A DNA stretch of 64,000 nucleotides, taken from the sequence record LC739534.1, one strand, 5' to 3'. This DNA comes from Escherichia phage phiWec181. A program made the translations under genes and the position numbers. Of this stretch, positions 37,163 to 55,856 are shown piece after piece. The notes beneath the pieces were generated by a model that did no database searches, was not told the DNA's origin, and saw nothing but the letters and a program-made list of their open reading frames with translations. Every line of letters starts with the position of its first letter. Position 1 is the first letter of the stretch.

Positions 37163-37437
37163 TTCATTTATCATCGCTTTTCCCTATCAATTATTCTATA
37201 TATACCTGTTATTTTTGACACCCCCTTTGGTCAAATATTAATCGGCAAAATATCTGGGGGTACTCTATAAAATGATGCCCCCTGTTCCTGCAATTTATCG
37301 AGGAGAATATCATTCGACTATCATCGGCAAAGAGACAGAAAAGCCTTTGGTAGCAAGGATTTATGGCGAGTACGTCAGGACTGCTTAACGCGAATTTTTC
37401 GGCCCCTCCACTTCTGCGAGCCGGAATCCTCAAATAT

Positions 37438-37470
37438 CAATGAGAATAATTATCATTATCATTCGTATTC
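37438..37470. promoter_or_regulatory. Fur-box-like palindromic operator motif
   Basis: AATGAGAATAATTATCATTATCATT: 16/19 identity to Fur consensus GATAATGATAATCATTATC; related copies at 52026..52140. Confidence 0.35.
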
Positions 37471-37859
37471 AATAACTTAGGCGATCTTTTCCCCTGCTAT
37501 AAGGTCGGGCCTAACTTAACCATCACTTTTCAAACAATCCTTTATCAATCAACTACTTAACAACCTAAACATATGATTACTACGGTGTAAAGGTGCCGCC
37601 CATAACAGACTACCTATAAAATAGATGAGAATGATTATTATTCAGACAATTCTTACAACAAATCGACCAACAAATCAAGAATTTTCTTATTTTTATTCAC
37701 GTTTAAGAGAACGTGCTCAACATTCCGCTACGCGTAACGGTTCGCCCCCAAAAGATTAGCCTTTGCTTTCCTGTATATTTATACACTATGTGCAAGGTGT
37801 CGCTACACGCTCGCCTTGCCCCGCATAATCCTTCACTGTGCTAATGATTTCATAGTGCA

Positions 37860-38060
37860 ACAATAACACTTATTATTATATTACGCTTAATTATTCTTAC
37901 ATACAATGCTAATAATAAGCCAGCGTAATTAGTGTAAGCGTAATACGCTTGCAATAATTGCAAGCTACATAATCACAAGAAATAACTATCACCGATAGTT
38001 ATGATTGTGGGGGTGTAGTTGGCTTATTATTAGCTCGCTACGTGTCCGGCGTAGCGTGCT
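37860..38060. repeat. cluster of four distinct perfect palindromes in non-coding DNA
   Basis: AAGCGTA-a-TACGCTT, GCTTGCAAT-a-ATTGCAAGC, ATAACTATC-acc-GATAGTTAT, CGCTACG-N7-CGTAGCG within ~120 bp. Confidence 0.45.
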
Positions 38061-38099
38061 AATGATGAGGCTTGGAATGATTCATTTTGCAATTATTAC

Positions 38100-38480
38100 A
38101 GTCTTCACTATTTTGATAATAGTTGTTCTTTTAATGGTTTCATTTGTTATCGTTAGTTAGTTGGTTGTTTTGTAGTGTTATCGTTATCTTGCTTAGTATT
38201 CATCACGGTTTGATTGTTTGTCGTTATCAATCATCTTTCTATTATTCCTTTGATTATGATTAGTTTGCTTATTGTTTTAGGTTGTTGGTTGGTTAGTTGT
38301 TGCGAACTATTATCAACATTATAGTTATGCACTTATATTGCATAGATACGCAAGGGTAGATGATAATGGTTATCATTGCACTGGAAAGGAAGAAAACAGC
38401 CTTTTTCGGTTGTTTGTTGTTGGTTGTTGATCTATTTTAACCGCTCTAAATAGCTCTCTAACAGCCTGTTTACCTGGGGT
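38100..38480. repeat. G+T-rich low-complexity tract with reiterated GTTATC / GGTTGG motifs (iteron-like)
   Basis: Multiple GTTATC(G/A) and GTTGTTGG repeats; no ORF with SD on either strand. Confidence 0.4.
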
Positions 38481-38583
38481 GTATGGTTATTCGTTTGCTG
38501 GTTGATTAGCTCGATACCGCGATTTATTCAGTTTTGTTCTGTGTCGGTTTTTCATAGGCGGAATCTATCAACATTGTTCGGGC

Positions 38584-38612
38584 AAAAAGAAAGGGCGCTT
38601 GGTGCGCCCCTT
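38584..38612 (-). terminator. rho-independent terminator
   Basis: AAGGGGCGC-ACCAA-GCGCCCTT hairpin followed by TTTCTTTTT on minus strand, just after CDS 38626..39045. Confidence 0.55.
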
Positions 38613-48936: not shown

Positions 48937-49182
48937 TTAGTTTGCGAAATATGGCGCGGCGGCTGATGCCGTTAATCTCCAAGTGATTTGGCTATCGATC
49001 AAGTATTCTTCATTCTTGATCCGCACGGTATCAATCGAGAAGTTACTGAAAGGCTTGCTCTTGATTTTACGAACAACCGTTACACGACGGTTATTTTTCA
49101 TCTCTTTTAACTGAATCCAGGCGTAACCTTTTTCATTGACAAATATTTCATTGTGATTGGTGATAGATGATAAGTGTTTCAT
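48937..49182 (-). CDS. hypothetical protein (81 aa)
   Basis: SD AGAAGAGAGAAAA upstream. Confidence 0.5.
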   Translation of the reverse strand: MKHLSSITNHNEIFVNEKGYAWIQLKEMKNNRRVTVVRKIKSKPFSNFSIDTVRIKNEEYLIDSQITWRLTASAAAPYFAN

Positions 49183-49203
49183 GATTTTTCTCTCTTCTGT
49201 TTT

Positions 49204-49265
49204 GAGCGGTGGACCATTCCGCCGCCCTATGTGTTACATCTTACTACTTTTTTAAACATTGTCAA
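49204..49265 (-). promoter_or_regulatory. PeSL-like cassette, hairpin class II
   Basis: TTGACA, TAAGAT -10, GGCGGCGGA-ATGG-TCCACCGC hairpin, then CDS 48937..49182. Confidence 0.5.
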
Positions 49266-49273
49266 GGATATTT

Positions 49274-49555
49274 TTAACTATATGATCCACATCGTTCGCA
49301 GTAGTGATCATCGTCGTCATCTGCTACCTGGCTGATAAAATGATCTACCTTTGCTTTCAAATTATTATAATTGCTTTCTACTTCCTGTAGTCGTCGTTGG
49401 TAGTATTCCAGGGCTTGCACATAGGCCATTTGTTCGGTTTTAGCTTGCATAGCTAAATTCATGCCACGCGTTTCATCGTATAACCAATAACCATCATTAC
49501 ATTCACTAATAGATAGTGTAGGGCTTAGTTTTTCGTGACGGATAACCTTGCTCAT
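49274..49555 (-). CDS. hypothetical protein (93 aa), coiled-coil-like with C-terminal CxxC
   Basis: SD TAAGGGG upstream; ends ...HYCERCGSYS. Confidence 0.5.
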   Translation of the reverse strand: MSKVIRHEKLSPTLSISECNDGYWLYDETRGMNLAMQAKTEQMAYVQALEYYQRRLQEVESNYNNLKAKVDHFISQVADDDDDHYCERCGSYS

Positions 49556-49565
49556 AGTGTGCCCC

Positions 49566-49676
49566 TTACTTCAAAATGATTGTTGTGATAACTGCTACGG
49601 TGATCCAGAATGGAACAACTAAGATAATAGCGTTAATCGTTCCAACTGTCAAACTATTTTCTTTCTTGATCATCAT
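49566..49676 (-). CDS. small hydrophobic peptide (36 aa)
   Basis: MMIKKENSLTVGTINAIILVVPFWITVAVITTIILK; SD AAGGAAAAC upstream; in frame with track ORF 49566..49799, whose N-terminal extension is rejected. Confidence 0.4.
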   Translation of the reverse strand: MMIKKENSLTVGTINAIILVVPFWITVAVITTIILK

Positions 49677-49683
49677 GTTTTCC

Positions 49684-49767
49684 TTACAGTGTCCAAAGAA
49701 TGATTTCAAGTGCAGCACGGAAACCAGGAATAAAATTGATTGCAAAAAACAGGGAAGTAGTAAACAT
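49684..49767 (-). CDS. small hydrophobic peptide (27 aa)
   Basis: MFTTSLFFAINFIPGFRAALEIILWTL; SD GAAAGGATAG upstream; not in ORF track. Confidence 0.35.
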   Translation of the reverse strand: MFTTSLFFAINFIPGFRAALEIILWTL

Positions 49768-49786
49768 TTTTCTATCCTTTCAGTTG

Positions 49787-49845
49787 TGAGCGGCACCATT
49801 GCCGCCTGATGAGTTAACTATAAGGGATCACGTTTTACCTGTCAA
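49787..49845 (-). promoter_or_regulatory. PeSL-like cassette, hairpin class I
   Basis: TTGACA, TAnnnT -10, GGCGGCA-ATGG-TGCCGCT hairpin, then the two small hydrophobic peptide ORFs. Confidence 0.5.
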
Positions 49846-50399
49846 CCTAAATCATCAAAATAAAGATAATTTTTTTCGGCTTCTTTCTTCTCTTCCTGTG
49901 ATGCCTCAAAGACTGGGAGAAAGTGATCAAAGGCGACGCACTCAACCGCTTGATCGTCTTCCTCTTCCTGGTCTTCCTCCTGGGCTATGGCTGCAATTTT
50001 GGCTAATTTCCTTTCAGCCTGGATCAGCTTACCATCTAAAACGCTTTTAGCGGTGCTGTACGCCGTCCAAGTGATGCGCTTACTTTCCAGCGCGGCATCA
50101 AGCGCCGCTATCTTGCTGGGGTATTCATCCAGGACACGAAAAGCCGGATCTACCTTGTACAGCGGATTATCTTTCGCGCCGTCGCTATCATCTGCGGCGC
50201 TTGCAATGTCAGCGTTACCATTCGCCAGCCAACCAGGGCGATCGCTGCGTGTTTTGGTATTCCCATGACTACGCGCCGATCTGTTGCCTACTTGCTCGCC
50301 ACTATAGCCAGGAGCATGATCGATCATGTCGTCCGGTATAATGCGCGGATCATTAACGTCATGTTTTACCCAGGACTGGATCACATATTCGCGCCCCAT
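49842..50399 (-). CDS. hypothetical protein (185 aa), acidic C-terminus
   Basis: SD AAAAGGGGTG upstream. Confidence 0.55.
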   Translation of the reverse strand: MGREYVIQSWVKHDVNDPRIIPDDMIDHAPGYSGEQVGNRSARSHGNTKTRSDRPGWLANGNADIASAADDSDGAKDNPLYKVDPAFRVLDEYPSKIAALDAALESKRITWTAYSTAKSVLDGKLIQAERKLAKIAAIAQEEDQEEEDDQAVECVAFDHFLPVFEASQEEKKEAEKNYLYFDDLG

Positions 50400-50659
50400 T
50401 ATACACCCCTTTTAACAATCATTTCACACACAAGAAATAAGCTGGCGGAATCACGGCAAGGATAGAAAGATGTACGATAATCTCTCACCCCTGCTTTTAT
50501 GATCTCCGTGGTTTTACCTGATAGCACATTGTAAATAGTGTAACTTGTCGGACTGTTTTTATATACCTTGCCAGGGTAGATCATAACATAACGAGCAAGG
50601 TTATAAAATTCCTCGTTACGAAAGGCTATGATCTTCCCGCATACCTTAAGAAAGTGCAC
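50399..50659 (-). CDS. hypothetical protein (86 aa), GTG start
   Basis: GTG preceded by TAAGGGGGG at 6 nt; start overlaps downstream gene stop. Confidence 0.45.
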   Translation of the reverse strand: MHFLKVCGKIIAFRNEEFYNLARYVMIYPGKVYKNSPTSYTIYNVLSGKTTEIIKAGVRDYRTSFYPCRDSASLFLVCEMIVKRGV

Positions 50660-50669
50660 GTTAGCCCCC

Positions 50670-50942
50670 TTACAGCAAAAAGTTTACTTGTCTTGCTGTT
50701 AATGTAGTATCAACCATTTTCGGGCTTTTATAATTGACAAAACGCGCGGTTTTTTCAATAGCGAAGCCGAGATAATCTTGTTTGTTGAAATTACATTCTT
50801 TCTTAAATGTTTCCCGTGCAATGGCGATCGCTGCGTCCAGGGATAAACGCCCGTCAATATTGATATTTGCGAAAGATCCGCCACCGCTCATAGGTTTACC
50901 AGTGGTGCCCGTTACGATCATTGTTGCGCTATATGATGCCAT
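50670..50942 (-). CDS. hypothetical protein (90 aa)
   Basis: ATG 50942 preceded by AAGAGAGATTATC; ORF-track start 50978 would lie inside the hairpin cassette. Confidence 0.5.
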   Translation of the reverse strand: MASYSATMIVTGTTGKPMSGGGSFANINIDGRLSLDAAIAIARETFKKECNFNKQDYLGFAIEKTARFVNYKSPKMVDTTLTARQVNFLL

Positions 50943-50964
50943 GATGATAATCTCTCTTAGTTGT

Positions 50965-51026
50965 GAGCGGTGGACCATTCCGCCGCTCTACGTGATACAT
51001 CTTATCAGGTTGTTGCCTGTTGTCAA
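50965..51026 (-). promoter_or_regulatory. PeSL-like cassette, hairpin class II
   Basis: TTGACA, TAAGAT -10, AGCGGCGGA-ATGG-TCCACCGCT hairpin, then CDS 50670..50942. Confidence 0.5.
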
Positions 51027-51032
51027 TACTTT

Positions 51033-51230
51033 TTATTCAAGCCCTACGATATGTAAGACACGGCGATTAGCAATAGCGTGCTGGTCTTCTGTTATAACGC
51101 CCATTTCTACCAGTGAATCAAGAAAGGAAAGCACCGTGATATATTCGTCATCGGGTACACTCATTTCATTAGTACCGTTTACCACTACGTTGATTTGTCC
51201 TGCTTTCGCTACAATGTGCAATGTTGCCAT
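51033..51230 (-). CDS. hypothetical protein (65 aa)
   Basis: SD CTGGAG upstream; long GC-rich leader. Confidence 0.5.
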   Translation of the reverse strand: MATLHIVAKAGQINVVVNGTNEMSVPDDEYITVLSFLDSLVEMGVITEDQHAIANRRVLHIVGLE

Positions 51231-51365
51231 GATCTTAACTCCAGGTGATGAATGATGTTTTTTGTTGGTTGACGGTGGATTATGGAGATCCTCACCTTTG
51301 CCCGTCCTGCATTGCGCCCTCCTGTTGTTTATTGTCGTTGTGCCTCGCCCCCCTCGACAAGATTA

Positions 51366-51394
51366 ATACTACGCTACCAGGTGCGGAACGTCAA
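51366..51394 (-). promoter_or_regulatory. sigma70-type promoter with long GC-rich leader
   Basis: Minus strand TTGACG, 17-nt spacer, TAGTAT; ~130-nt leader before CDS 51033..51230. Confidence 0.45.
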
Positions 51395-51504
51395 CGACTT
51401 TTTCAATCTTTTTTATTTTCTTTTTGCTTGCTATATATAAAGGAAAGGGCTATCATCTTTCTACCGCGCCAACCAGGGCGCACAACAGAAGAAAGGGCGA
51501 CACC

Positions 51505-51771
51505 ATGACAACTACTACATTACACCTTATGCACTCGTTAGGCTGGCAAGGCGGCACGGTCCACCAGGTAGCAAGCGCAACGGGCTTAAAGGTTGAAACA
51601 GTTCTCAACCTGGGCGATCATAAAGTGGAAGAGATAGACCATTTTGATCCGTTCGCTGATGGTTATCTCTGGGCTTGCAGTGGCGGCGGGGAAAGCAAGA
51701 TACCGCCAGCCGCGCGGGGCGATATGCATTTTTGGTTAGGTGTTCTCTCCTGGCAAGAAAACAAAAAATAA
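51505..51771 (+). CDS. hypothetical protein (88 aa) in GC-rich island, opposite strand to neighbours
   Basis: ATG 51505 preceded by GAAGAAAGGG; codon composition visibly more GC-rich than surrounding genes. Confidence 0.35.
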   Translation: MTTTTLHLMHSLGWQGGTVHQVASATGLKVETVLNLGDHKVEEIDHFDPFADGYLWACSGGGESKIPPAARGDMHFWLGVLSWQENKK

Positions 51772-51773
51772 TC

Positions 51774-51802
51774 TTGACAAGCCCAGGGATCGGGCTTATA
51801 CT
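51774..51802 (+). promoter_or_regulatory. near-consensus sigma70 promoter on + strand with no downstream SD-led ORF
   Basis: TTGACA, exactly 17-nt spacer, TATACT; downstream ~150 nt GC-rich with no convincing ORF. Confidence 0.5.
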
Positions 51803-52025
51803 GTTTTACATACAGAAGAGGAAGCGCCACCCCACGGCGTAAAGGCGGGGCTAACATACCAGGGGCACTGGTTGGAAGGTCGATCGCCGGGAGGCTGGGC
51901 GCTATATATTTGTAAAGAAATGTAAAGATAAAATAATCGCTTGCTTTCCTGGCTGGATCTGTTATTCTTATTACATGGCGAGGGGACACGGGAGCGCGAG
52001 ACAATCACCGGACCTGCCCGTCATT

Positions 52026-52140
52026 CTGCAAATGAGAAAAATTCTCATTTGCAAATAAGACTCATTCGCATTTAATAATTGAATGAGAATCATTCTCATT
52101 CTCATTCGTATTTCGATTTTAAGTGAGAATAATTCTCATT
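52026..52140. promoter_or_regulatory. three palindromic operator-like sites (AATGAGAAT-n-ATTCTCATT), Fur-box-like
   Basis: 27-bp perfect palindrome TGCAAATGAGAA-AAA-TTCTCATTTGCA at 52026..52052; further copies at 52082..52100 and 52121..52140. Confidence 0.45.
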
Positions 52141-52152
52141 TCGGTAATTTTC

Positions 52153-52338
52153 ACGTAAACTTTAGAATTTGCTTTTCAACTTTCACTTTTGTAAAAGCAA
52201 AAAAACTTTAAATACCTGGTGCGCGCGACTTTTTAAAAAATTTTTCTCGGTTTTTTGCTTTGAAATCTGGCCCACCAATTTGAGATAGTGTACGTAAACT
52301 TTAGAATTTGGTTTTGGATTCTCACTTTTGTAAACTCG
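52153..52338. repeat. pair of ~46-bp direct repeats in non-coding DNA
   Basis: ACGTAAACTTTAGAATTTG(C/G)TTTT...TTCTCACTTTTGTAAA at 52153..52198 and 52292..52338; TTGAGATAGT also repeated. Confidence 0.45.
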
Positions 52339-52483
52339 TAAAAAGTTTAAATAATTGTAGGGATTTTGAGATAGTTTGCTTGTAAGGTTTGAGATAATCC
52401 TTCCCGAAGATGTTACGCAGCCTACAGCCTACCTGAATGCTCGTCTAACGAGATTAACTCTAAAAGATGAGTGTTGGTGTAGC

Positions 52484-52521
52484 TAAAGAGAAAAGGCTCT
52501 CTACGGTGTTGTAGGAGCCTT
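52484..52521 (-). terminator. rho-independent terminator after NADAR gene
   Basis: AAGGCTC-N15-GAGCCTT hairpin followed by TTTTCTCTTT on minus strand. Confidence 0.45.
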
Positions 52522-52591
52522 ATTTCTGTGGCACAAAGTTGACGTATTCTTTTTAAAAACGAATTTTTTCAAAATATCACGAATATCGCCT

Positions 52592-53119
52592 TTATGGTAT
52601 TTTGGCTGGGAACAGGATTTTAATCAGATTGTTGTGGTATTGTCCTAAAAGATTCTGCCCTTTCCAGTTGGCAGGATTAAGCACCCCTGGTTCGTACATA
52701 CCCATTCCAATTCCGTAAACCTTATCATAAGGACTCGCCTCAACGAACGTTTTGAATTGGTACAGTCGCAAGTCAGAATAAAGATCAGGGTTCTGTGTAT
52801 ACTTCAAGCATAAGCCTCGCATTACGATACGCTCTCGGTACTCTTCCCACATGTCATTATTAAAACCAGACACCGCTCGACCCATGCGCTTGTAGTATGC
52901 CTGTCCCTTCTCGTCGTCACGCTTCATTGAGTGATCAAGGATAGCTGCTGCGATTACCTGATCCTTGAACAGCAAAGCCTTACGCCACATCATGTATTGC
53001 TCTACACAACAGAAAGTTTCATTGTACCCTGGTTCCGTCTCTGTGAATGGTGCAATGTACCAATTGCTAAACACATCTTTATGTGAAAAGAAGAATACAT
53101 ATTCATTAGTTATTCGCAT
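52592..53119 (-). CDS. NADAR-domain protein (YbiA-like, NAD/ADP-ribose processing family)
   Basis: N-terminal FFFSHKDVFSNWY and overall ~175 aa layout resemble NADAR/DUF1768 (YbiA). Confidence 0.65.
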   Translation of the reverse strand: MRITNEYVFFFSHKDVFSNWYIAPFTETEPGYNETFCCVEQYMMWRKALLFKDQVIAAAILDHSMKRDDEKGQAYYKRMGRAVSGFNNDMWEEYRERIVMRGLCLKYTQNPDLYSDLRLYQFKTFVEASPYDKVYGIGMGMYEPGVLNPANWKGQNLLGQYHNNLIKILFPAKIP

Positions 53120-53294
53120 TTTTCATGCCTCTTAAGACTTCAGCTTGCCCGTCTTGAAAAGCTTTCATCAGAACTATCTTAAGATTGACTTCCAAGCGTT
53201 CTTCATCCTCTTTATAACAATCCAACACTGCCTTAAGTTCATCATAGTGGTTCAGAATAGGTTTAAAGATTTCATGATCTGCTAAACGTGCCAT
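53106..53294 (-). CDS. hypothetical protein (62 aa)
   Basis: SD AAAGGAGAAAC upstream of ATG 53294. Confidence 0.45.
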   Translation of the reverse strand: MARLADHEIFKPILNHYDELKAVLDCYKEDEERLEVNLKIVLMKAFQDGQAEVLRGMKNANN

Positions 53295-53307
53295 AGTTTC
53301 TCCTTTG

Positions 53308-53673
53308 TTAGTCCATCCACCAGTAGCCATAAACTGCGTCTGCGTCGATGAGTTTGTGTTTGTTGTTCCGCATGTAGTCTAAGATAAGTAGACGTTTATT
53401 GTATCTGGAGAGATTATGACCCTCTTTTCCGCCATAGTCAAAATATTTTGCAAGACTTTTACACTCAAACAAAATCAGTTCGGGAGTTTCTTCACATTGG
53501 TCTGTCTGGTACACTTGACGGATGATCATGTATACGTCATCGTCTTCCGCTAAGTGCTCTACTGGTCCACACCCAGCAGGAATAAATTCATAGTCCCATC
53601 GAATCAGATGTTTCTCTACTGCTTCAAAGAAATCCATTTTTTCGCTACGCATGATCTGAACATCAATTAACAT
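53308..53673 (-). CDS. hypothetical protein (121 aa)
   Basis: SD CAGGAGGAAAA upstream. Confidence 0.5.
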   Translation of the reverse strand: MLIDVQIMRSEKMDFFEAVEKHLIRWDYEFIPAGCGPVEHLAEDDDVYMIIRQVYQTDQCEETPELILFECKSLAKYFDYGGKEGHNLSRYNKRLLILDYMRNNKHKLIDADAVYGYWWMD

Positions 53674-54679
53674 AATTTTCCTCCTGTCTCATTATTCCAC
53701 CTGCTTGGTTGATAGCACTTAAGACAACAGCCAAATCCTCACGCAGGAAGGTTTCACTATGACCGTCTTTCATGTGCAACGCTTCCACACAGCCGATAGA
53801 CGGTAGGATCTGATCAGTCTTAGATTTTAGCTTACTCTCTAACGCCCTGCAAGCCTGGTAGGACGGCAGATCAAACAATGCTACACGTTGCATAAAGTAG
53901 TTATTATTTGCATTCTGAATCTTCAAACGTATATCACTATCCTTTGCAATCCCCAGCTTGAAAGCTCCCGTATCTTCTCCATACTCATCAAGGATAACGT
54001 TGATGTAAAATTCTTGCTGTGATCTGCCTTTACATTCAGAACAACCATTCCCACTTAGATACTTATTAGGTGTTATCGTTTGTTCTCCGTGCTCACTACA
54101 TAAATATTTAAACTTAGACATGGTTCCCACCTTACCAACGAACCCTATAAACTGGTCCCCTCGTTCCTGGCAAGCTTCAGTCATACGGAAAATCCATTGC
54201 GCAGGAGTGTAACGATGGTTTTTAGAACAACGGCAAGCAAGCAGCCCATCTCTAAGACTGCTCCTCGTTACTTCAAACCTACCGTTACACACGCCAGCCT
54301 TTACATATTCGTCATGAGAACATACGGAACACTTAACTATCCAATAAGCCGCCCATCCTTTACTATCTAATCTATCACTACGATAATACTCACGCGGAAC
54401 GTTATCAGGACACGCTTTGTTAAAGGTTGTGATATGGATTGAATCATCAATTAAACATGTTTGCCTTATTGCTTCCACCCTACAACCTTTACAACCACTT
54501 CCTATTTTAGCATTATCTATAGAAGTTGTTCTCCATTCCCCATGTATAGAACATTCACAGGTTAGTTTAGTGCGTGCCCCCTTCCATTCACCATGCCACC
54601 CCGTAATGGTCCACGGTTTATCCTGGTAAGCTTGTTCTATTTCTTCCTGATATTCCTCCCAACTTTTAGCCCTCATCAT
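53663..54679 (-). CDS. T5orf172-like (GIY-YIG-related) domain protein with N-terminal CxxC zinc-ribbon repeats
   Basis: Repeated CxxC pairs, then C-terminal KLGIAKD...R...KDGHSETF resembling T5orf172; paralog of CDS 58247..59200. Confidence 0.5.
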   Translation of the reverse strand: MMRAKSWEEYQEEIEQAYQDKPWTITGWHGEWKGARTKLTCECSIHGEWRTTSIDNAKIGSGCKGCRVEAIRQTCLIDDSIHITTFNKACPDNVPREYYRSDRLDSKGWAAYWIVKCSVCSHDEYVKAGVCNGRFEVTRSSLRDGLLACRCSKNHRYTPAQWIFRMTEACQERGDQFIGFVGKVGTMSKFKYLCSEHGEQTITPNKYLSGNGCSECKGRSQQEFYINVILDEYGEDTGAFKLGIAKDSDIRLKIQNANNNYFMQRVALFDLPSYQACRALESKLKSKTDQILPSIGCVEALHMKDGHSETFLREDLAVVLSAINQAGGIMRQEENYVN

Positions 54680-54716
54680 CCCCCCTACAACAAATGCCCC
54701 TTGCGGGGCATCTTTA

Positions 54717-55856
54717 TTAGAACACGCTACTTAAGGTTGCAGATCGTGTAGTGGTTGGTTCCAGAACCACACGGAACGTATCCCCAGGTTTATCGCTCAC
54801 TACTACAATCTTACCACCTTCGATCAGGTCACACTTCAAACCTTCGGCAGTAGCTTTCAGGTCGATGCGTGGATCGCCATCATCATCCAGGATAACGTAG
54901 CTGCTATCTTCGAGAGGCTCCAGTTCTTCGTCTTTCACGGCTTCCAGGTAGATGTTCAGTTCACATGCACCAGACAAGAACTTGGTAGGAGTGAACTCAT
55001 GCCAGTTGTTGACCCAGTTAGGCTTGATAGCTTTACCGTTGACAACAATAGAGCTAATCGTCCAGCGTGCATCGTTACCCAGAGAGATACCCATCATCTC
55101 CAGACAGGTCTTGAACGTCATTTTCGGATAGAAGTTTAACTCTTCTACGATCCCTTGAATAACATCGAAAGACAGTTCAGTGCTAACATCCCACAAACGT
55201 TGGAAGCTTTCAACATGTTTGCGATTCTTCAGATTCTTGTCCAGGTAGTCCAGCATAGTTTCAATAGACAGTTTGTCGTAGTTGAAGCTATAGAAGATAC
55301 GGCTCGGACGGTTGACGAAGTATTCCGAGATGTATCCGCTGTTCTTTGTCAGCATGAACAGTTTGTTACCGCTACCTGTGCCATCCAGCAGAGTCAGCAG
55401 TGCTTCCTGATCTTCCTTCTTGGAATACACTTTGTCGAACTCATCGAACAGTACTACTGCGCGTTCAGAGATCTTACTCATGAACTCCAGGAAATTGGCA
55501 TCAGAATATGGCTGCGTTACCAGAATAGTTGGGATTCCCAGGTCTTCCGCTTCCAACAGAGTGTTACTGATCAGTTTTGCCAGCATTGTCTTGCCACTGC
55601 CTTTTGTACCCGACAACAGGACACCTGTGTTCTTACCTTCTTTACTACGACGAGCGAAGGTACGGATAACGTGGGCTGCACGTTCTTTGGTTTCCCCGTA
55701 CAGGCGATCAGGAATCGTGAACTTATCAGCGCGACTAAGAGAATAGTTACCATGTGGATCACAATTGACAGTCCAAACGCCAGCGGGGAGTTTATCAACC
55801 TCTACACCAAAATCTTTATTAACAATTGCAACATCCCCATAAACTGTGTATTTCAT
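54717..55856 (-). CDS. AAA+ family ATPase
   Basis: Walker A GTKGSGKT and Walker B VVLFDEFD; SD AGAGGAGAAAG upstream. Confidence 0.7.
   Translation of the reverse strand: MKYTVYGDVAIVNKDFGVEVDKLPAGVWTVNCDPHGNYSLSRADKFTIPDRLYGETKERAAHVIRTFARRSKEGKNTGVLLSGTKGSGKTMLAKLISNTLLEAEDLGIPTILVTQPYSDANFLEFMSKISERAVVLFDEFDKVYSKKEDQEALLTLLDGTGSGNKLFMLTKNSGYISEYFVNRPSRIFYSFNYDKLSIETMLDYLDKNLKNRKHVESFQRLWDVSTELSFDVIQGIVEELNFYPKMTFKTCLEMMGISLGNDARWTISSIVVNGKAIKPNWVNNWHEFTPTKFLSGACELNIYLEAVKDEELEPLEDSSYVILDDDGDPRIDLKATAEGLKCDLIEGGKIVVVSDKPGDTFRVVLEPTTTRSATLSSVF

Follow-up and report, generated by a model that had tools for sequence, protein, structure and literature searches.

The direct-repeat pair D1 of Escherichia phage phiWec181 is, as judged by comparison with related genomes, a genuine, ancient and selectively maintained cis-element. 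It is best described as one of the repeat arrays of phage control or origin regions, a known kind, and would, with a probability of roughly 40%, constitute a DNA-level array of recognition sites for a lineage-specific factor, located in a conserved non-coding control hub. The label of a classic iteron origin should not be applied to it. The DNA examined, referred to as the window, is a stretch of 64 kb from record LC739534.1. To our knowledge, neither an origin of replication nor a control region has been defined for the Stephanstirmvirinae or the Vequintavirinae. These abundant coliphages have a broad host range; they are used in therapy cocktails and form part of the BASEL collection.

The pair and the short elements related to it are the following:

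52153..52214, plus strand: repeat copy D1a, 62 nt, ACGTAAACTTTAGAATTTG / CTTTTCAACTTTCAC / TTTTGTAAAAGCAAAAAAACTTTAAATA, from the repeat search
52292..52353, plus strand: repeat copy D1b, 62 nt, ACGTAAACTTTAGAATTTG / GTTTTGGATTCTCAC / TTTTGTAAACTCGTAAAAAGTTTAAATA, from the repeat search
52215..52291, plus strand: inter-repeat spacer, with the GC clamp GGTGCGCGCGAC, the A/T tract TTTTTAAAAAATTTTT, a poorly conserved stretch and TTTGAGATAGT (52279-52289)
52365-52375 and 52388-52398, plus strand: two further TTTGAGATA(G/A)T motifs, from the repeat and motif searches
51909..51937, plus strand: distant third paralogue of the D1 3' half, TTTGTAAAGAAATGTAAAGATAAAATAAT, directly upstream of promoter P2

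In the repeat search, D1 formed one family of two directly oriented copies, which are 84% identical (52/62) and start 139 nt apart. The first-pass annotation had described repeats of ~46 bp about 140 bp apart; the pair and its spacing were recovered, and the length had to be corrected to 62 nt. Both copies begin at their 5' end with the identical 19-mer ACGTAAACTTTAGAATTTG, for which exactly two sites exist in the window with up to three mismatches allowed (0.05 expected; two sites reached in 0 of 100 shuffles). The additional short sequence that had been said to recur beside the pair is found as well, namely as exact copies of TTTGAGATAGT at 52279 and 52365 and as the one-mismatch third copy TTTGAGATAAT at 52388. 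Window-wide, TTTGAGATAGT at one mismatch was found four times against 1.7 expected, which is not significant alone; three copies of this type within 120 nt of one strand represent a strong local excess, and TTTGAGAT was observed three times against 0.01 expected. Each D1 unit carries an A-tract followed by short A/T boxes (AAA[C/G]TTTA, three per unit, plus TTTTGTAAA). The hexamer AACTTT, located at 52158, 52178, 52204 and 52297 (intervals of 20, 26 and 93 nt), is over-represented on the plus strand, with four occurrences against 0.14 expected, as is AAACTTTA with three against 0.03. The TTTGTAAAGAAATGTAAAGATAAAATAAT block, listed as family D5 in the repeat search, is 72% identical to 52327-52355, and TTTGTAAAGAAnnGTAAAGA is kept in six aligned phages, from Phapecoctavirus through to Certrevirus CR3 and phiTE. 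Since the 19-mer, the 16-mer CTTTCACTTTTGTAAA and AAASTTTAAATA are essentially confined to the D1 locus within the 64 kb, a general class of repeated early or late promoters or motifs was ruled out; a second matching site cluster was not found elsewhere in the window.

The pair is located within a gene-free gap of 820 bp (51772-52591), which is bordered by a plus-strand gene for an 88-aa protein and by a minus-strand gene for a NADAR-domain protein (52592-53119). That the region is non-coding, as had been proposed, is confirmed by its ORFs, which measure only 30-44 aa and are unlike, in position and length, the short CDSs annotated there in two related records; coding potential was therefore rejected. 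The recognizable elements of the gap are all on the plus strand, in the order P1, GC-rich element 1, TTTGTAAAGAAATGTAAAGATAAAATAAT, P2, GC-rich element 2, palindromes, D1a, spacer and D1b, followed by the two TTTGAGATA motifs, ~95 poorly conserved nt and a hairpin closing the gap. In addition to the repeats, the following features are relevant:

51505..51771, plus strand: gene of the 88-aa protein, the only plus-strand gene here and always adjoining the hub
51774-51802, plus strand: promoter P1, TTGACA-17-TATACT, near-consensus sigma-70, 11/12 match
~51809-51900, plus strand: GC-rich element 1, ~90 nt, after P1
51941-51968, plus strand: promoter P2, TTGCTT-16-TATTCT, near-consensus sigma-70
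~51975-52030, plus strand: GC-rich element 2, ~55 nt, after P2
52030..52141, no strand assigned: four Fur-box-like palindromes, with TGAGAAnnATTCTCA cores at 52033, 52084 and 52124 and a degenerate one at 52053-52073
52494..52525, no strand assigned: bidirectional intrinsic-terminator hairpin GGCTCTCTACGGTGTTGTAGGAGCC, with T-runs on either strand

The palindromes, which had been noted earlier as neighbours of the repeats, are indeed present at 52030-52141 as four copies of AATGAGAAnnATTCTCATT (repeat and motif searches). The GC-rich elements (~55-95 nt) hardly vary across Phapecoctavirus, Certrevirus and Vequintavirus. They look like undescribed conserved phage small RNAs, for which covariation support is thin, because most of the predicted pairs are invariant; neither has an Rfam match. 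A known RNA family was rejected as an identity for the region, with cmscan returning nothing at E <= 1 over 49000-55000 and no tRNAs being found. The 88-aa protein shows 91-98% amino-acid identity across Phapecoctavirus and Justusliebigvirus; its model is confident and all-helical, with no fold match and no detectable DNA-binding fold. Directly after the stop codon of its gene, the hairpin AAGCCC-AGGGATC-GGGCTT (51781-51797) is situated exactly in the spacer of P1, with compensatory changes at 3/6 pairs across six phages, and may be a terminator or attenuator overlapping the promoter.

Over 1.8 kb around the repeats, phiWec181 is 100% identical to the Escherichia phages phiWec179 and phiWec186 (Stephanstirmvirinae), 94-97% to phiWec188/190 and PsgM04F, and ~85% to the phAPEC8/ESCO13/Schickermooser clade. 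phiWec179 and phiWec186 are filed under Phapecoctavirus and have lately been proposed as a separate genus (PMC12695924). With 52142-52400 as query, 70 of 70 Phapecoctavirus-type records were covered to at least 80%, each with two matching places, the effective sample for the D1 sequence being about three independent lineages, since the main clade is nearly invariant. In an alignment of eleven phages, the identities between the clade of the window and the main Phapecoctavirus clade were as follows:

D1a: 89%
D1b: 84%
Spacer, 52215-52291: 60% overall, and 43% in its middle part, 52251-52278
Segment after D1b: 63%
Next 95 nt: 48%
Terminator, 52494-52525, the sole conserved structure 3' of the repeats: 95%

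The D1 copies, with 84-89% against 43-67% for the flanking non-coding segments, are islands of conservation of fixed orientation, and they are under purifying selection. The absence or lack of conservation in relatives, which the first-pass annotation had envisaged as evidence against its proposal, was not observed. The presence of both copies in 70 records and their far better conservation than that of the surroundings support a functional cis-element and, with it, the part of that proposal which spoke of a multi-site element; the part which spoke of an iteron-type replication origin is left without support. The 3' 29 nt of D1a (positions 34-62) are 97% identical between the window and phage ukendt, with TTTTGTAAAAGCAAAAAAACTTTAAATAC invariant in 11 phages. 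In these 29 nt of D1, orthologues are 93-97% identical, compared with 79-83% between the copies inside one genome. Both clades share the differences by which the copies are told apart, from which it follows that the duplication predates the clade split and that each copy is constrained on its own. The 5' 19-mer is 84-100% identical within a genome, and between the clades the same two substitutions (TAGAAT to TAAATT) occurred in both copies in parallel; gene conversion of short tracts would account for this, as would co-evolution with a binding factor. The TTTGAGATA(G/A)T motifs are kept in the main clade, and the sequence between them is not.

Two phages show rearrangements near the repeats. 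EP57 is devoid of two palindromes and of 52376-52492 (~115 nt, from the last TTTGAGATA motif to the terminator) and has kept both D1 copies and the spacer. phiWec188 contains ~92 extra bp adding two palindromes, with the D1 pair intact. The 'Pseudomonas phage PsgM04F' (OR584014.1) is 97% identical to phiWec181 across the locus, and several 'Campylobacter phage' records also fall within the family; the hosts named in these entries seem questionable. An IMG/VR scan with an 18-mer yielded ten loci, only two of them on contigs as long as Stephanstirmvirinae genomes (149-153 kb), and added no diversity. An origin of the repeat sequence from host or plasmid was rejected upon zero matches in 5,426 E. 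coli genomes and in the PLSDB plasmids.

Conservation of the initial 300 nt of the gap, with the promoters, the GC-rich elements and the first palindrome, reaches far outside the genus: Justusliebigvirus (87-90%), Klebsiella Stephanstirmvirinae, Certrevirus (CR3, phiTE), Vequintavirus (rV5) and others share this part. On the 3' side of the palindromes, direct repeats are present in every lineage read, with sequences differing between lineages; the spacing runs from start to start:

phi92 and muut: three 63-nt units, spacing 75 and 67
rV5: three 57-nt units, spacing 74 and 65
CR3: three 39-52-nt units ending in the GC-rich box CGATCGAGACCC, spacing 63 and 78
phiTE: up to six copies of the CGATCGAGACCC box, spacing 20-221 (main units 63 and 78)
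FBKp34: two 45-nt units, spacing 186

In rV5-, CR3/phiTE- and FBKp34-like phages, this position is taken by two to six repeats whose sequences are unrelated; the period of the sister arrays is given as 63-78 bp, the spacing in FBKp34 being 186. Colinear alignment with phi92 equates D1a with unit 1 (61%), D1b with unit 3 (54%) and the spacer with unit 2. The spacer as a degenerate middle repeat was rejected, since it is no more similar to D1 than shuffled sequence; its match with unit 2 of phi92 is thus only positional. GCAAAAAAACTTTAAATA is found verbatim in the window, in the main clade and in phi92. Arrays of different sequence at the same place across lineages imply that the architecture is preserved while the sequence turns over. 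Such a turnover would be expected of specific protein-site pairs, whereas sites for the host RNA polymerase would converge on one consensus.

The earlier label of an iteron-type origin is not borne out by the content of the region. Instead of at least three contiguous, tandem and phased iterons of 17-22 bp, the region has two copies of 62 nt at a distance of 139 bp. A perfect DnaA box (TTWTNCACA) does not occur in 51700-52650; boxes with one mismatch are mostly situated inside the palindromes, with one inside D1a, and the wider surroundings contribute few more, the 51-kb and 52-kb bins having 2 and 5 per kb, respectively, against a window mean of 2.5. IHF sites were not matched in or beside the D1 repeats. 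The region has 71-76% A+T, and TTTTTAAAAAATT is conserved in phi92; the 15 least stable 40-bp stretches of the window do not include the D1 locus, and the least stable ones cluster at 37.4-37.9 kb. No switch of GC skew is seen at 52 kb, the skew running parallel to the orientation of the genes. For rV5, skew analysis in the genome paper placed no origin, and the region was marked there only as a 'non-coding' box (PMC3606486). No linked initiator gene of the Rep/O type is recognizable nearby and no replication genes lie within about 10 kb, the neighbours being the 88-aa protein, the NADAR protein, a CapR-domain endonuclease, an AAA ATPase and small proteins of unannotated function. The AAA ATPase, 2.1 kb from the repeats, gave only weak DnaC or clamp-loader-like matches. 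The classical features of an iteron origin are thus not apparent, and an origin using a phage-specific initiator or transcription is possible but unproven.

With the iteron origins of lambda (ori), P1 (oriR), pSC101 and RK2, the locus shares direct repeats in non-coding DNA beside dyad-symmetric sites and A/T-rich tracts, as well as a lineage-specific sequence within a preserved architecture, as known from initiator-iteron pairs. It differs from them in that their sites are 17-22 bp long, contiguous, helically phased and 3-7 in number, compared with the two 62-nt copies of D1, and in being devoid of DnaA and IHF sites and of a linked initiator gene and showing no marked unwinding element. The crr region of satellite phage P4 comprises two direct repeats of ~120 bp, ~60 bp apart, with copies of the octamer bound by the alpha protein, and acts distant from ori. 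D1 is similar to P4 ori/crr in having two long, spaced direct repeats, which are built from a short word (AACTTT-type) and lie away from a replication gene, but it shows no sequence similarity to it, and neither a nearby alpha-like primase/helicase-initiator nor a second site cluster exists in the 64 kb. Transcription-activated origins are exemplified by the primary origin of T7, with tandem promoters and A/T-rich DNA, and by oriF/oriG of T4, with a promoter and a downstream unwinding element. The hub resembles them in its strong promoters, GC-rich transcribed segments and A/T-rich repeat DNA, all in one orientation. In contrast, its promoters are of the host sigma-70 type, its A/T-rich part is not unusually unstable, and formation of an R-loop or primer would be hypothetical.

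The number of palindromes varies from 3 to 6 between phages. From the Fur 7-1-7 consensus, TGATAATnATTATCA, the 52-kb palindromes deviate by 2-3 mismatches and the sites at 37441 and 38361 by one. Palindromes of the form TGAGAATnATTCTCA / TGATAATnGTTATCA cluster in two non-coding regions only, one being 52030-52141 and the other comprising 37439-37469, 37626-37640 and 38361-38375. The block GAATGAGAATCATTCTCATTCTCATTCGTATTTCG is homologous to a block of T5-like phages (86% over 55 nt, E = 3e-7, BLAST; Epseptimavirus and others); Stitch, rokbiter, misterkot and others carry it. In Salmonella phage Stitch, where the long terminal repeat has its inner end, the block is found in 1.5 kb of gene-free DNA, preceded by DnaA boxes and followed by ~9 direct repeats of GTGCGAATCCGACA. 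This DNA is 'Repeat Region 3', in which the injection stop signal resides and for the repeats of which there is as yet no explanation (bioRxiv 10.1101/866236).

Phage Schickermooser is reported to have a direct terminal repeat of 329 bp (PMC6563267), which maps to 37386-37717 of the window, a stretch with two of the same palindromes. The hub would accordingly lie 14.4 kb inside the physical end, and between the 37-kb end and the hub only small minus-strand genes are found. The window contains a second large non-coding region of ~1.2 kb at 37380-38600; its first 330 bp are the counterpart of the Schickermooser terminal repeat, so that the physical genome end is probably there. The window's least stable duplex DNA is likewise found in this region, along with short GT-rich repeats and three Fur-like palindromes. 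The records of phiWec179 (LC739533.1) and phiWec189 (LC739538.1) each show an exact 148-bp overlap of end and start, at unrelated positions, and the paper describing the phiWec genomes states that they 'terminate with direct terminal repeats'. That palindromes delimit the terminal repeat of Vequintavirus, as the 148-bp overlap of phiWec189 is bounded by them, was rejected; the overlap is an assembly artefact, because phiWec179, which is unrelated, overlaps itself by exactly as many bases at an arbitrary point beyond the window.

Since all elements share the plus-strand orientation of the transcription island, a function in promotion or at the RNA level retains some probability. It is possible, if on balance doubtful, that each D1 copy is a promoter module, in which an UP-element-like A-tract is combined with -35/-10-like hexamers for the host sigma-70 RNA polymerase. 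TTTGAGATA(G/A)T would then be an extended -10-like TGnGATAGT, and non-coding plus-strand transcripts stopping at 52494-52525 would serve as small RNA, as insulation against the converging minus-strand operon or for activation of neighbouring DNA. Three plus-strand sites agree with this, the best being TTGAGA-16-TAGAAT at 52280-52307 (10/12), next to TTGAAA-18-GATAGT with TG (TGnGATAGT) at 52260-52289 and TTGTAA-16-AATAAT at 52328-52355, and a consensus scan yielded 10 promoter-like sites in the 2.3-kb region compared with 4.6 +/- 2.3 in shuffles. In the same direction point the paralogy of the D1 3' half with the A/T-rich block just upstream of the P2 -35 (D5), the conserved T-run of the terminator on the plus strand and the survival of A2 and T6 of the putative -10 in the change from TAGAAT to TAAATT; in the main clade, the D1b site reads TTAAGA/TAAATT and is weaker but recognizable. 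However, D1a is without an acceptable -35 (TTCGGT or TGCATA) and has no -10 after its A-tract, and the geometry is not conserved, the distance from TTGTA(A) to TAAATA being 14 nt here versus 21 nt in unit 3 of phi92. PWM matches this strong occur at 5.8 per kb per strand across the window. Moreover, the sister arrays display neither enrichment nor a unit-by-unit promoter, the CR3/phiTE units ending in CGATCGAGACCC, and the downstream RNA body is 48% conserved, without conserved structure, and deleted in EP57. Compared with UP-element promoters, such as rrnB P1 and the T5 early promoters, D1 has in common the A-tracts (AAAAAAAC or AAAAAG) directly upstream of -35-like hexamers and a 3' half paralogous to the pre-P2 block; the complete -35/-10 geometry is, however, present at one of the two copies only and unconserved in sister lineages. 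A literature search found no published transcriptome of any Stephanstirmvirinae or Vequintavirinae phage. Rather unlikely is a repeat acting at the RNA level, according to which P1 and P2 would give rise to a long non-coding RNA, with the palindromes as hairpins and D1 as single-stranded A/U-rich sites for binding or decoy of proteins, for instance Hfq-like proteins, RNases or a host defence nuclease. All elements are oriented as P1 and P2, no convincing plus-strand terminator occurs between P2 and 52494 (only a weak A/T-rich hairpin at 52080-52108), and the A-rich tracts resemble (ARN)n runs. A precedent from a related phage is phiTE, which evolves non-coding RNA repeats, pseudo-ToxI, against ToxIN (PMC3475682). 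These are, however, head-to-tail tandem pseudoknot repeats of ~34-45 nt, while the D1 copies are non-tandem, 77 nt apart, and without a stable or shared fold (z = -1.3 and +0.35). The phiTE pseudo-ToxI locus was rejected as an equivalent, since no such repeat is visible by eye in the phiTE counterpart of the gap. There is likewise no Rfam family and no covariation outside the terminator; a structured small RNA downstream of the repeats was rejected, only the terminator hairpin being conserved.

An element related to DNA entry or to the genome end is improbable. The hub would in that case be the counterpart of the T5-like Repeat Region 3 with its injection stop signal; placed where a terminal block of small early genes (~14 kb) ends on its inner side, it would pause or anchor the incoming genome. 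In its favour, the palindrome block is homologous to the T5-like one, which there also precedes a direct-repeat array (GTGCGAATCCGACA, ~9 copies), and the same palindromes occur in the stretch mapping to the Schickermooser terminal repeat, with the hub 14.4 kb inside the physical end. Both loci have this block followed by direct repeats in a gene-free stretch of ~1 kb between converging genes (bioRxiv 10.1101/866236). On the other hand, the direct repeats are unrelated, D1 having no T5 homologue, and the paired DnaA boxes typical of the T5 region (131-bp inverted repeat) are absent from the hub. Repeat Region 3 is situated at the inner end of a terminal repeat of ~10 kb; here the terminal repeat measures 0.3 kb (329 bp), so that the hub, 14.4 kb away, does not border on it. 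Transcription of the small genes runs towards the end, which differs from the T5-like arrangement in phage Stitch, and the function of Repeat Region 3 is unproven even in T5. We know of no two-step injection in these myoviruses, which was also counted against this explanation. A functionless, neutral remnant of a local duplication, already disfavoured, is highly improbable. A/T-rich non-coding DNA duplicates easily, and only two copies exist; yet both have stayed at 84-89% while the DNA between and after them drifted to 43-60%, and, with the duplication predating the clade split, both are present in 70/70 genomes and persisted through the EP57 deletions.

The reading of D1 as an array of sites for a lineage-specific factor draws on the universality of the pair, its islands of conservation, its retention in EP57 and the separate constraint on each copy, as well as on the sister arrays, the non-enriched promoters, the missing RNA fold and the over-represented short words. 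The factor would most plausibly be a phage-encoded, sequence-specific DNA-binding protein; among the neighbours, where the annotated domains are only NADAR, endonuclease and AAA-ATPase, no candidate for it was found. Together with the palindromes and the plus-strand promoters, the D1 units would assemble a nucleoprotein complex in a dedicated control region. Both protein binding to D1 and the process served by such a complex are what we infer. Initiation or enhancement of phage DNA replication is tentatively preferred as this process, with control of transcription within the island as the next most likely. In the former case, the region could operate as a transcription-activated origin, where strong promoters would produce GC-rich transcripts upstream, followed by binding sites and A/T-rich DNA.

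A wider reading, considered distinctly unlikely, takes the gap as a control hub that is as yet undescribed and is widely conserved among rV5-, phi92- and phAPEC8-like myoviruses, with D1 as its lineage-specific module. Such a hub would comprise two conserved small RNAs with strong expression and a palindrome cassette, and a phage protein would bind its repeat array and co-evolve with it. The cassette would have been exchanged horizontally with T5-like siphoviruses and be present also in the terminal repeat. The function of the hub would be that of a replication origin primed by transcription or, alternatively, of a T5-like entry checkpoint bordering the terminal 14-kb early-gene block. As part of the hub, the D1 pair gains interest. 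The present work delimits a compact, universally conserved set of cis-elements, which lends itself to deletion, to exchange between lineages and to use as bait. Sequence homology connects this set with the repeat region at the injection-stop locus of T5, which still awaits an explanation. If D1 binds a lineage-specific protein, array swaps between genera would provide both a direct test of specificity and a handle for phage engineering.

At the distal border of the gap, the minus-strand gene 52592-53119 encodes a NADAR-domain protein (DUF1768/COG3236; Pfam E = 1e-33), which is designated 'GTP cyclohydrolase II' in the records of several relatives. Just after its stop codon, at 52571-52590, the motif pair AATATCAC / AATATCGC is located; in phi92, rV5, FBKp34, CR3 and phiTE, it recurs at this end of the hub as AAATATCA(C/G), in two to four copies.
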